Part shown: piece by piece, positions 3,947-59,051 of the stretch | Position numbering within the stretch: the stretch's first letter is position 1 | Layout of the letters: each line of letters starts with the position of its first letter | Program-made: the position numbers and the translations under genes | Source: a virus | Lineage: Duplodnaviria > Caudoviricetes | Virus record (IMG/VR): IMGVR_UViG_3300043388_000007 | Location: 4,034-68,033 of that record | Strand: one strand, 5' to 3' | Length of the DNA stretch: 64,000 nt | The notes under the pieces: model-generated | The model's input: only the letters and a program-made list of their open reading frames with translations | Databases searched by the model: none | Told to the model about the DNA's origin: nothing

Positions 3947-5061
3947 CGGACCACAGCCACCGCCGTCGCCACCGGCACCACGTCGTTGCGGCGCTGGTAG
4001 CGCACGGCCGCTCGGCGCACCGGGATCTCCACCAGGTAGTAGGAGGCCGTCGCTGCGGCGAAGGTCAGCACCAAGGCGATCAGGGAACGCTGGAGCAGGG
4101 TCAGGTCGGTCTTGTTGTGCAGCGCCACGTAGAAGGGCACGTGCCACAGGTAGAGACCGTAGGAGATCCGGCCGACCCACACGATGGGGGCGACGCTGAC
4201 CGCCTTGGCCAGCACACCAGGCTGGAGCGCACGTGCGATGAGCAGGCAGAACAGCCCGGCGACGATGAGATACCCGCCTCGGTAGTAGAACGAACTGGTC
4301 CAGGGGAGAGTGATCAGCAGGACCGCCAACCCAGCCAGCACGGCCAGGATGGAGCGCCGGGACAAGCGTCCGATCCAGTTGGCGTGCAGAGCCTCACCGC
4401 CGATCGGCAGCACCGTCGCCAGGAGGCAGCCGGACATGATCATGACGGCGCCATGAGCGTCGGTGGAGGGGTATAGCACCGGAGCGCTGACACCGAGCAG
4501 CGAGCGGGTGCCCATCTCCAAGGCTGAGAAGGCGACCACGATGGCCGCACCGATGCGCACTCCACGCACGCCCTTCCAGCGGTGGAGCAGGACCAGGCCG
4601 AGCGGCCAGAGAATGTAGAACTGTTCCTCGACCGACAGCGACCAGGTGTGGTTGAGCACCGAACTGATGTTGAAGGCGATGGCCCAATTGGTGGTGTAGC
4701 TGAGGGCGGCGCCCACGCTGAACACCGAACTCTTCAAGCTTCCCAGCGCTCGCACGGTGGCGCCGTCAACGAGGATCACGAAGCACACCAGCATCAACGC
4801 TGGCAGCAACCGGGCCGCACGCCGCAGGTAGAAGCCCTTCACGTCGTTACCGCCGTTTCGGGTGCGCTCTTCGAGCAGCAGCCTGGTGATCAGGAAGCCG
4901 CTCAGCACGAAGAACAGATCGACGCCGAGGAAGCCCCCGGCGAAGAACTTCGGTGCGTCTCCGTAGTGCAGGACGATCACCGCCATCACCGCAAAGGCCC
5001 GCAGGCCATCCAGGGCTGGCCGGTAGCCGAGCCTCCCTGTGTATTCCGCCGCCGTGTTCAC
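3943..5061 (-). CDS. Acyltransferase-3 family O-acyltransferase (OafA/OatA membrane domain)
   Basis: YRPALDGLRAFAV, GGFLGVDLFFVLSGFLIT, FYLRRAARLLP, HTWSLSVEEQFY, WVGRISYGLYLWH, SYYLVEIP; about 10 TM helices; no SGNH domain. Confidence 0.93.
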   Translation of the reverse strand: MNTAAEYTGRLGYRPALDGLRAFAVMAVIVLHYGDAPKFFAGGFLGVDLFFVLSGFLITRLLLEERTRNGGNDVKGFYLRRAARLLPALMLVCFVILVDGATVRALGSLKSSVFSVGAALSYTTNWAIAFNISSVLNHTWSLSVEEQFYILWPLGLVLLHRWKGVRGVRIGAAIVVAFSALEMGTRSLLGVSAPVLYPSTDAHGAVMIMSGCLLATVLPIGGEALHANWIGRLSRRSILAVLAGLAVLLITLPWTSSFYYRGGYLIVAGLFCLLIARALQPGVLAKAVSVAPIVWVGRISYGLYLWHVPFYVALHNKTDLTLLQRSLIALVLTFAAATASYYLVEIPVRRAAVRYQRRNDVVPVATAVAVVR

Positions 5062-56680: not shown

Positions 56681-56920
56681 CACAGTGGGGGCTTGTGCTA
56701 CCTCGTCCGCTTCTTCGACCGGCCGGTTCCGGGAGGGCGGCTGAGGCTCGATGGTGACCTTCCAGTGTGAAAGCCCCATATCCCGGTATTGGACAGGCAG
56801 GTCCTCGATCACGATTCCGTTGAATCGCTCGACTCCAGCCTGCGCCGAGAGGTCGGAGAGGTCGTGGATGACACCCTGGAGGTCTTCTGCGATCTTGTCG
56901 AAGGTCAGTGGCTTGGACAT
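56678..56920 (-). CDS. Hypothetical protein
   Basis: 80 aa; TAGTAT 6 nt before the ATG. Confidence 0.6.
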   Translation of the reverse strand: MSKPLTFDKIAEDLQGVIHDLSDLSAQAGVERFNGIVIEDLPVQYRDMGLSHWKVTIEPQPPSRNRPVEEADEVAQAPTV

Positions 56921-56946
56921 GTGGTGATACTAGAGGCCTGACGCAC

Positions 56947-56977
56947 AAGTGCCCCGGTCACAGCGACCGGGGCACTT
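56947..56977. terminator. Perfect 13-bp hairpin terminator
   Basis: aagtgccccggtc-acagc-gaccggggcactt. Confidence 0.8.
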
Positions 56978-56991
56978 ACTTCACCGAGTGG

Positions 56992-57123
56992 TCAACTCGC
57001 CGGGTACTGGTCCTTGTCCTTGTCGTTCTTCTCCATGAAGGCGTAGCCGCTGGTGTAGCCGCCCTGGGTGAAGTCGGCAACCCTGCCGAGCGTCTCGATG
57101 CTGGGTGATTCGTAGTCCACCAT
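56992..57123 (-). CDS. 43-aa peptide with lasso/RRE-type RiPP leader (MVDYESPSIETLGRVADFTQ-GGYTSGYAFMEKNDKDKDQYPAS)
   Basis: Not in the ORF track; AGGAGA RBS 7 nt upstream; own promoter and terminator; YxxPxI-xxx-G-xxxxx-T-x-G leader spacing. Confidence 0.72.
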   Translation of the reverse strand: MVDYESPSIETLGRVADFTQGGYTSGYAFMEKNDKDKDQYPAS

Positions 57124-57154
57124 AGTGATGTCTCCTGTTCGGTAGTGGACCATC

Positions 57155-57163
57155 ACTATAGCA
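57155..57163 (-). promoter_or_regulatory. Extended -10 promoter for the RiPP-like peptide
   Basis: TGcTATAGT on the minus strand. Confidence 0.6.
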
Positions 57164-57177
57164 GATGTGGTGAGATA

Positions 57178-57693
57178 CTAGGACTCGACCAGCATCCTGG
57201 TCATCACCGGGTCTCTGGTGATGATGGTGGCGACCCAGTTGACGATGCGTTGGCTCTGGTCGGGGGAGTACGTCTCGGGCGTCCCGTAGTGCGCCTGCAA
57301 CTGCTCCATCCAGCCATCGAGAGCATCGAGCCGGGTCCGTGGTCCTCGGGCCAGGGTGTCGTTGGGGACGATGACCGGTCGCTTGGCGTGCTCGACTCGA
57401 CGGGTCCCCGACTCGTAGTACAGCTTGATACCTGGGTTGTCCTGACGGACCAGGTAGTTGAGGATGGTCAGGAAGGAGCGGTGGAAGTCCTGCGATCCCT
57501 TCGTGCCCTGCCACTTCTGCTCGCCCAGGTCCCGCAGCGCTCGGCCCTCGGAAAGCGTCTGGCGGGGAAGCACCAGGCGTGTAGGACAGATCTCAGGTCT
57601 GTCGTTGGTACGGCCGTTACGTGTCGCTCCTGAGCATTGCAGCAGCCTGATACCCACGATCTCGCAGGTGACATACTTCCTATCAGGTGTCAT
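57178..57693 (-). CDS. Hypothetical protein
   Basis: 171 aa; TGcTACATT extended -10, 7 nt before the ATG (leaderless). Confidence 0.7.
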   Translation of the reverse strand: MTPDRKYVTCEIVGIRLLQCSGATRNGRTNDRPEICPTRLVLPRQTLSEGRALRDLGEQKWQGTKGSQDFHRSFLTILNYLVRQDNPGIKLYYESGTRRVEHAKRPVIVPNDTLARGPRTRLDALDGWMEQLQAHYGTPETYSPDQSQRIVNWVATIITRDPVMTRMLVES

Positions 57694-57725
57694 GCTCGCG
57701 AATGTAGCACCAGGTAGATAGGTGT

Positions 57726-57989
57726 CTAGTCCGTTGAGACGACGCTCTTCTCCACCGCTACATCAACGCCGTAGTACTTGACCCATACCGTGGTCAGCAG
57801 CGCCGAGAGCCGGTAGGGCAGGCCAGCGTCGGGGTCGCCCACGTCCTTACAGAAGTGCTGGTGGTCGATCAGGTGACCGATGCCGCCCATGACTTCACGC
57901 AAGGCGCAGGCCTTGTGCATCGGCTGGATCGAGGATGCCGAGTTCTCGTCCTCCATCGGAGTATCACAGAGCACGCAGTTCACTGCCAT
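57726..57989 (-). CDS. Zinc-binding hypothetical protein
   Basis: CVLC...MHKAC..H..HQHFC. Confidence 0.65.
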   Translation of the reverse strand: MAVNCVLCDTPMEDENSASSIQPMHKACALREVMGGIGHLIDHQHFCKDVGDPDAGLPYRLSALLTTVWVKYYGVDVAVEKSVVSTD

Positions 57990-58189
57990 ACCACCCGAGT
58001 GAGGCCACCATGACCATGGACGGCTTCGACCGACTCCATGCCCCGGTCGTGGAACACCACGCTGGTGGGGAACTCGGACAGCCAGCGCAGCGCTACGACG
58101 CCTCCGGTGAACTCGATGCCCTCGGCCACGATGCCGGTCCCGGAGATGCCGGTGACATCTTCGTCACGAACCAGGACGAAGGCCCTCAT
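57980..58189 (-). CDS. Conserved small actinophage-type protein
   Basis: RDEDVTGISGTGIVAEG.EF....ALRW...VHGHGG.T pattern. Confidence 0.75.
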   Translation of the reverse strand: MRAFVLVRDEDVTGISGTGIVAEGIEFTGGVVALRWLSEFPTSVVFHDRGMESVEAVHGHGGLTRVVWQ

Positions 58190-58337: not shown

Positions 58338-59051
58338 TCATAGCGACTCAGGCAGGATGCGGCGGCGCTGTCTCGGCGGCAGCACTGTCGTGGTCGTCGT
58401 GGTCGTGGTCGTCGTGGGCGAGATCGTCGTGCTTGTGGAGGAGGTCGTGGATGAGGTGCTGGTCGTCGTCGTTGAGGACTCGGGGGGCAGTGACGACGTT
58501 GAGGTAGTGCTGACCGAGGTCGTCGTGGTCGAACTGGGGGCCGTAGTCGTGCTCGCCGGGACCGTGCTGGTCGTTGTACTGGTCGATGGCACGGTTGACG
58601 AGGTTGACGAGGTAGTCGAGGTCGTGCTGGTCGTCGTAGATGTGCTCGTAACCGGCACGGTGGAGGTCGTCGTTGGCGGCACGGTGGTCGAAGTGGTCGA
58701 GGTCGATGGCGACGTAGACGATGTGGTGGTGCTGGACGGCGCCGTCGTCGTGGTCGTCCCTGGTACGGAGGTCGTCGTTGAGGTACTCGGGGTGGTGGTG
58801 GTCACCGGCACGCTGGTGGTGGTCGTTGAGGCCACCGTGGTCGTCGTCGCACCCGTCCCCGTAGTAGTGGGCGCCACTGTCGTTGTCGTTGATGACGAAC
58901 CCCCGTCTGTCGTGGTCGTTGTGTAGGCCGGATGCGTCGTTGTGGTGGTCGGGGGCGGGTACCAACCACCAGCATCAGCCACCGTCGCCAGTGTGATAGC
59001 GCCTGCCGTCACCACGGCTGCTGCGACAGCGACCCACCGCTTGATTGCCAT
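58338..59051 (-). CDS. Secreted mucin-like Thr/Ser-rich protein
   Basis: Signal peptide (MAIKRWVAVAAAVV..ADA) then about 190 aa dominated by Thr/Ser/Pro; ggagag RBS. Confidence 0.75.
   Translation of the reverse strand: MAIKRWVAVAAAVVTAGAITLATVADAGGWYPPPTTTTTHPAYTTTTTDGGSSSTTTTVAPTTTGTGATTTTVASTTTTSVPVTTTTPSTSTTTSVPGTTTTTAPSSTTTSSTSPSTSTTSTTVPPTTTSTVPVTSTSTTTSTTSTTSSTSSTVPSTSTTTSTVPASTTTAPSSTTTTSVSTTSTSSLPPESSTTTTSTSSTTSSTSTTISPTTTTTTTTTTVLPPRQRRRILPESL

Follow-up and report, generated by a model that had tools for sequence, protein, structure and literature searches.

Lasso precursors are usually seen as parts of bacterial biosynthetic clusters; in this work we describe a cassette of a soil phage that encodes a precursor of this type and keeps the handles for the host enzymes, while the one residue needed for ring closure is gone. 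The gene appears to be a phage-borne, horizontally mobile derivative of the precursors found in kinase-type lasso clusters of Acidimicrobiia. The reading that we favor, to which we give a probability of about one half, is that it represents a captured ring-less precursor that enters the kinase-type lasso pathway of the host in trans, and acts as a linear (phospho)peptide, as a dead-end competitor, or as both. The window referred to throughout is the whole stretch of DNA that was analyzed, i.e. 64,000 nucleotides corresponding to positions 4,034 to 68,033 of the IMG/VR virus record IMGVR_UViG_3300043388_000007.

Results

Architecture of the cassette

An earlier sequence-only reading had proposed a 43-aa frame at 56992..57123 of the minus strand, as a monocistronic unit with an extended − 10 box, an AGGAGA ribosome binding site and a perfect 13-bp terminator. 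The frame is present, it starts with the ATG at 57123-57121 and ends with the TGA at 56994-56992, and the elements of the cassette are the following:

57155..57163, minus strand: − 10 element TATAGT with an upstream TG, read directly; no clear − 35
57131..57136, minus strand: ribosome binding site AGGAGA, invariant in 6 of 6 copies
57064..57123, minus strand: leader, codons 1-20, with the Y-x-x-P-x-I RRE-binding motif, Gly-8, Thr-2 and the putative cleavage site Q/G
56995..57063, minus strand: core, codons 21-43, with a Gly start, Glu11 as first acid, a charged K/D tail and a Pro-Ala-Ser end
56992..56994, minus strand: stop codon TGA, read directly
56946..56978, minus strand: predicted terminator hairpin (by folding), 13 Watson-Crick pairs and one G-U, loop of 5 nt, weak U-tail

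The TATAGT hexamer (57160-57155) is preceded by a TG (57163-57162), as had been proposed, but this TG is not conserved among the relatives, which share just GCTAnAnT. The AGGAGA sequence was found 7 nt upstream of the ATG (57136-57131). The 13 Watson-Crick pairs of the terminator are there (56978-56946), together with one G-U pair and a 5-nt loop; the U-tail is weak. The predicted folding energy of the hairpin is − 28.2 kcal/mol (z = − 3.9 versus shuffles). A sigma-70 consensus scan did not call the − 10 element at 57155..57163, and a simple terminator scan did not call the hairpin at 56946..56978. In the DNA alignment of the six copies, GCTAnAnT, the ribosome binding site and the start codon are kept and the surrounding intergenic DNA has diverged, while the frame, intact in all copies, carries two indels, one of 3 nt and one of 6 nt. 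A hairpin lies 3' of every copy; in L001 (a 27-kb contig) and L005 its stem is kept and the loop varied, and in L003 a different hairpin occupies the same place. The in-frame GTG at 57156 can be discarded as start codon, since L001 does not have it. From its sequence features we regard the 43-codon frame as a real gene, and the expectation of a monocistronic cassette was borne out.

The leader is homologous to those of lasso precursors

The spacing of the leader residues is exactly the one that had been noted, with Tyr-17, Pro-14, Ile-12, Gly-8, Thr-2 and Gly+1. When the peptide was compared with the lasso-leader HMMs, NF033521 (lasso_leader_L3) was the sole NCBIfam match, but its 13.5 bits are below the cut-off of 19. 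The four close phage peptides score 13.5-14.9 bits on this model (E 0.02-0.06) with the entire 20-position profile covered, and the bacterial relatives score 22-26 bits, above the cut-off of 19. When the phage peptides were aligned by hhalign to 13 cluster-resident precursors, the probability was 98.3% (E 2.3e-14), with 68% identity over 22 columns, and a profile made of bacterial cluster-resident precursors only had a single match in the 68-kb virus record, which was this leader (E 1.8e-9). Nine leader positions are invariant across 20 aligned peptides, and the phage peptide keeps all nine; no invariant leader residue is lost in the six phage-type peptides, which have Thr-2 and Gly+1 as well. 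The resemblance to actinobacterial lasso leaders thus proved to be true homology that goes beyond motif spacing, with a source narrower than had been suggested, namely the kinase-type lasso clusters of Acidimicrobiia. Judged by this homology, the peptide is a lasso-type, RRE-dependent precursor by descent.

The bacterial source family

A search of 1.84 billion representatives with a profile of the four close peptides retrieved small peptides with the same leader and with cores that carry Asp at position 7 or 9. The presence of B1, B2 and C genes beside homologues, which had been set as a check, was observed: the gene for P0011 adjoins those of PF13471 (B2), PqqD (B1), Asn_synthase (C) and an ABC exporter, and that for P0014 adjoins an Asn_synthase gene. 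A degenerate leader DNA pattern located ten loci in the GTDB species genomes, distributed among Ilumatobacteraceae, Acidimicrobiaceae, other Acidimicrobiia or 'Actinomycetes' MAGs, and one Thermoleophilaceae; most of the bacterial relatives belong to the first two families. A cyclase homologue adjoins the peptide gene in all ten of these loci, an exporter in nearly all, and, within the flanking DNA examined, B1 and B2 in most. In these loci the respective cut-offs are exceeded by the precursors (NF033521), by B2 (NF033537) and by B1 (PqqD). The Acidimicrobiia clusters contain an 84-aa B1, a B2 of ~126 aa, a short Asn-synthase-like cyclase, an ABC exporter and an HprK-like protein. The latter is conserved, has ~290-320 aa, and its P-loop region matches HprK-related kinases, although below the curated cut-offs (TIGR04352, E 1.8e-8; PF07475, E 1.5e-4; PDB 1ko7, E 0.013). 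As predicted from its gene content, the layout of the cluster is that of the phosphorylated, paeninodin-type lasso clusters, in which the C-terminal Ser is phosphorylated by the kinase while the precursor is still linear and its leader still attached (PMC9266682). Among 20 distinct bacterial cores, counted from bacterial genomes or from beside cluster genes, Asp9 is present in 20 and a Ser end in 16, mostly as Pro-Thr-Ser. The distribution of the family is patchy (16 of 401 sampled genomes at the family level, 8 of 401 at the class level), so the phage gene would be useful in some hosts only.

Several features of the bacterial loci were recorded on the side. The cyclase in the clusters of L008, L010 and L013-L020 is unusually short for its Asn-synthase-like type (~350-400 aa), and in L020 the precursor-plus-cyclase pair is present twice, in tandem. 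Small peptides whose leaders are lasso-like and whose cores are Cys-rich or acceptor-less occur in arrays of 3-4 in L024, L029, L031 (G335, G135) and L023/L053 (G087), with no B1, B2, C or D homologue within 3 kb. The neighbors in the G087 locus include an ECF-type sigma factor, an ABC-2 transporter and a halogenase-like flavoenzyme. Although its peptides combine leaders of lasso type with cores that lack an acceptor, this locus (L053) was set aside because its cluster is of an unrelated type.

What the core keeps and what it loses

The absence of an acid at positions 7-9 of the core, from which a canonical ring had been called unlikely, was confirmed; these positions are Tyr-Ala-Phe, the first acid is Glu11, and a canonical ring is impossible. 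An acid at 7-9 is missing in five of the six phage-type peptides, the sixth (P0005) having Glu8. The C-terminal Pro-x-Ser, in contrast, is present in all six, and the peptide of the window, ending in Pro-Ala-Ser, thereby has the conserved C-terminal Ser that is the phosphorylation site of kinase-type precursors. Within the core, the six phage-type peptides conserve Gly1, an aromatic residue at position 3, Ser/Thr5, Gly6 and Tyr/Phe7; these positions, along with Thr-2, Gly+1 and Pro-x-Ser, persist in P0004 and P0005, which are 49% identical.

In the MAFFT alignment the phage-type core corresponds to the bacterial core minus five ring residues, and the old Asp9 would then correspond to position 4 of the phage core, where three copies have Asp, the window peptide has Thr and P0002 has Asn. 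This register is also the best ungapped one, but 23% of column shuffles equal it, and a five-residue deletion in the ring is no more than suggestive. No ring-less member of the close family was seen in roughly 800 Acidimicrobiia genomes. A cut after Ser25, which would give a 9-residue Gly-to-Asp ring, was rejected as the main reading since no Thr is conserved two residues ahead of Gly26; it is also disfavored by the leader spacing, which fits a Q/G cut as in the bacterial relatives.

Relatives and mobility of the cassette

Protein searches yielded five relatives, all of them metagenomic, i.e. P0001-P0003, which are close, and the more distant P0004 and P0005. The phage-type family is very rare, with six sequences among 5.8 billion proteins, and a second protein search added only peptides of the Asp9 type. 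No relative was found among 50,697 phage records (blastn, tblastn), in IMG/VR scanned with the peptide profile and with the leader DNA pattern, or in the GTDB genomes scanned with the phage-type profile; a scan of JGI metagenomes gave one further copy of the P0003 variant and nothing else.

Synteny with the window was seen for L001, L002 and L005. L003, L004 and L048 have in common with it just 180 bp, from the − 10 box to ~10 nt beyond the stop codon, and their flanks are unrelated; the cassette is thus found in at least two unrelated genomic backgrounds. Furthermore, a segment of ~570 bp just upstream of the cassette (57170-57738) is present in the window and missing from the syntenic L001. 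The following elements surround the cassette:

57980..58189, minus strand: gene of the Acb5 (anti-CBASS sponge) family, 69 aa, ~0.85 kb upstream of the cassette
57165..57180, minus strand: direct repeat, left copy (TAGTATC..ACCACAT, imperfect, ~15 nt), overlapping the stop codon of the upstream ORF
56918..56933, minus strand: direct repeat, right copy, with a TAGTAT hexamer 6 nt 5' of the ATG of the next gene (56920)

The product of 57980..58189 is 96% identical to that of an L001 gene with a precomputed PF26761 Acb5 match, and matches phrog_7499 (E 1.4e-22); the Acb5 family has been described (bioRxiv 10.1101/2025.07.12.664507). Given the 570-bp segment that is absent from L001 and the Acb5-family gene nearby, the site acts as a hot spot for accessory genes, and these comparisons show that the cassette is mobile and lies within an accessory region. 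The imperfect direct repeat that brackets the cassette is also seen in L005, at 189-201 and 439-451, and may be due to chance.

Additional observations concern the adjacent DNA. The segment 57170-57738 holds an ORF at 57178-57693 (minus strand) without family match and a promoter-like site at 57728-57701. With TAGTAT as its − 10 box, 6 nt before the ATG at 56920, the start of the next gene looks leaderless. On the minus strand, 58338-59051 encodes a 237-aa protein without family match that consists mostly of Thr/Ser runs after a signal-like N-terminus. The neighboring genes gave no lead in Pfam, PHROGs and the ESM Atlas, and neither tRNA genes nor Rfam matches were found.

When the peptide gene of the window was compared with that of L001 (5112-5243), three non-synonymous and no synonymous changes were counted (25 synonymous sites), whereas four neighboring genes have a pooled pS of 0.168 in the same comparison, and the deficit of the peptide gene has a P of about 0.01. 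A recent spread of the cassette would leave such a pattern and agrees with its being mobile; nucleotide-level constraint could also be responsible. The protein-level reading alone leaves the missing synonymous changes unaccounted for, and RNA structure is unsupported as the reason for the low synonymous divergence because the mRNA shows no notable structure over its coding part. Nearly all the changes in the core are non-synonymous, but the counts are too small for significance, and positive selection was rejected as a reading.

Maturases, completeness of the record and host

The earlier statement that no maturase is visible in the window was extended to the entire record, and it held: there is no Asn_synthase, PqqD, Transglut_core3 or Hpr_kinase_C match in 68,033 bp (PF00733, PF05402, PF13471 and PF07475). 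This record is ~58% complete. The cluster proteins gave no tblastn match in the window or across L001-L007, the flanking DNA examined around the phage-type copies, all of which lie outside clusters, contained no maturase gene, and three complete Borockvirus-like relatives showed no Asn_synthase or PqqD gene. The term 'orphan' stands for the 68 kb that were seen and is limited to them, because the record is a fragment (~58% by CheckV); maturases may be encoded in the ~42% of the phage genome that lies beyond the record, and this is the main caveat of our interpretation.

The terminase is 47% identical to those of Streptomyces phages of ~113-116 kb such as BRock and LuckySocke. No relatives of the terminase were found among 401 Ilumatobacteraceae genomes; we count this, with the affinity to Streptomyces phages, against the main reading, but for assigning the host it is uninformative. 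Acidimicrobiia are the probable host lineage.

Predicted complex with B1

An Acidimicrobiia B1 modeled together with the phage peptide scored 0.47, versus 0.22 for the best control, and passed a mark that is reached by 58 of 80 solved complexes and by 2 of 110 mismatched pairs; at a score of 0.60 or under the mark is reached by 7 of those 80 and by both of the passing mismatches. The contact agreement between runs was at least 69% and the partner pLDDT at least 51. Because lasso B1-leader complexes have already been solved, the pass may reflect likeness to them, and the prediction weakly supports binding of the phage leader by B1.

Discussion

Proposed role of the peptide and alternative explanations

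All the handles by which the enzymes hold a linear precursor are kept in the phage peptide and only the residue for cyclization is lost; therefore, the peptide should still meet the lasso machinery of the host. We propose that the cassette is expressed from its own promoter during infection and that the leader docks on the B1 RRE protein of the host. The HprK-like kinase would probably phosphorylate the C-terminal Ser43, and the B2 peptidase, via Thr-2 and Gly+1, would cut after Gln20. Cyclization would never occur given that Asp9, the residue that the cyclase activates, is missing. The product would be a linear (phospho)peptide of 23 residues, which the host exporter may release; the phage peptide would also compete with the host precursor for B1, kinase, B2 and cyclase. 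By calculation, the linear core has a monoisotopic mass of 2571.12 Da and the unmodified full-length peptide a mass of 4810.17 Da. To our knowledge, a benefit for the phage, either from a linear peptide of this kind or from blocking lasso synthesis, has been shown in no system. A dominant-negative action, in which the precursor works as an 'anti-RiPP' that jams the host lasso line at B1, B2, kinase and cyclase, is unlikely in our estimate; if it were true, the kinase-type lasso peptides of Acidimicrobiia would be a chemical anti-phage defense and phages would counter RiPP defenses via precursor mimicry.

The remaining explanations differ in how much of the lasso pathway they retain. A lasso-like leader may have been repurposed toward a partner, of phage or host, unrelated to lasso enzymes, so that the resemblance records only its origin. 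The absence of maturases from every phage-type context and the rarity of the host cluster family are in its favor, lasso-like leaders also occur in Acidimicrobiia loci that have no recognizable lasso enzymes (e.g. L053), and the nucleotide-level conservation of the peptide gene is otherwise unexplained; however, it is hard to see without lasso enzymes why Tyr-17, Pro-14, Ile-12, Thr-2, Gly+1 and the end Ser should be kept when the cyclization residue alone is lost, and we hold this explanation to be rather unlikely. Quite unlikely, in our opinion, is a pure leader decoy, a counter-defense in which the leader titrates the B1 (and B2) of the host, a harmful host lasso peptide is left unmade, and the core is passive. 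It would account for a lost ring acceptor beside an almost unaltered leader, and it agrees with the strong expression signals and with the accessory region near an anti-defense gene of the Acb5 family, a proximity that is circumstantial as evidence of an anti-defense function; anti-phage lanthipeptides are known in actinomycetes (bioRxiv 10.1101/2024.06.26.600839), and non-productive RRE complexes are a recognized cost of shared leaders (PMC13381572). A decoy, however, needs neither Thr-2 and Gly+1 nor a conserved core nor an invariant Pro-x-Ser, and all of these persist in P0004 and P0005; a lasso peptide acting against phages was not found in the literature. The conservation of the core across members that are 49% identical therefore disfavors the leader-only decoy, and leaves undecided whether the peptide is a product or an inhibitor.

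A true RiPP precursor, very doubtful in our judgment, would have its enzymes in the unseen ~42% of the genome, or would form a non-canonical ring, Gly1-Glu11 or, after a Ser25 cut, Gly26-Asp34. The record is incomplete, the four close copies all have Glu31 and Asp34, and the Ser25 cut would yield a ring of 9 residues. On the other hand, the bacterial precursors adjoin cyclase and exporter genes and the phage copies never do, the complete Borockvirus-like relatives are devoid of Asn_synthase and PqqD genes, the rings known so far are closed at positions 7-9 and nowhere else (PMC9266682), Thr, Asn or Asp stands two residues ahead of Gly26, and with the register shifted in this way P0005 lacks an acid at 7-9. 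A gene that was captured from a host and is now decaying, without any function left, would agree with the lost ring acceptor and with a family of six sequences among 5.8 billion proteins; nevertheless, the frame is intact everywhere with indels in threes, promoter, ribosome binding site and terminator are conserved, and the cassette sits in at least two unrelated genomic backgrounds, all of which makes a remnant highly improbable.

Comparison with known systems

The closest precursors to the phage peptide belong to the kinase-type clusters of Acidimicrobiia, which are uncharacterized (e.g. L016 and L015, in Ilumatobacteraceae and Acidimicrobiia MAGs); their characterized analogue is that of paeninodin, PadeA with PadeK/B1/B2/C/D. 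The phage peptide and these precursors have in common the leader (68% over 22 columns), Thr-2, Gly+1, a core of 20-25 residues and Pro-x-Ser. In contrast to them, the phage peptide has no Asp9, does not adjoin B1, B2, cyclase, kinase or exporter genes, and is encoded in a self-contained phage cassette. With regard to the lasso precursor class, it carries the leader but is below the cut-off of NF033521, has no acid at 7-9 and has no adjacent B1/B2/C genes; with regard to the paeninodin-like class, its locus has no HprK-like kinase.

Phosphorylated lasso peptides have linear analogues, and cross-recognition, or competition for the RRE, between precursors is a recognized problem (PMC13381572). 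The linear polyphosphorylated peptides (LPP) of Bacillota are ring-less and leader-guided, and have their RRE, kinase and exporter proteins in common with paeninodin-type lasso pathways (Popov et al., Nat Commun 2026, PMC13381572). LPP precursors have a WxxP leader and a leader peptidase of the SpI type (signal-peptidase type), and reside in bacterial clusters of their own; the phage peptide, with a YxxP leader and no linked peptidase, kinase or RRE, falls outside the LPP. The phage peptides of the Arbitrium AimP type are small pro-peptides that use host processing and transport, and whose residues vary between related phages. The likeness to AimP is by analogy only, given that the peptide described here has no linked receptor gene and carries a RiPP leader instead of a secretion signal.

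In a full-text literature search no phage-encoded lasso precursor or leader mimic was found, and an interaction in which phages tap or disturb RiPP biosynthesis in trans, as they may do here, was found in no paper. Compared with the known systems, the gene encodes a lasso-family precursor by descent that is borne by a virus and departs from the family in both its ring and its cluster; as such, the phage peptide would constitute a natural, evolution-tested, non-cyclizable substrate analogue for the study of lasso enzymes.
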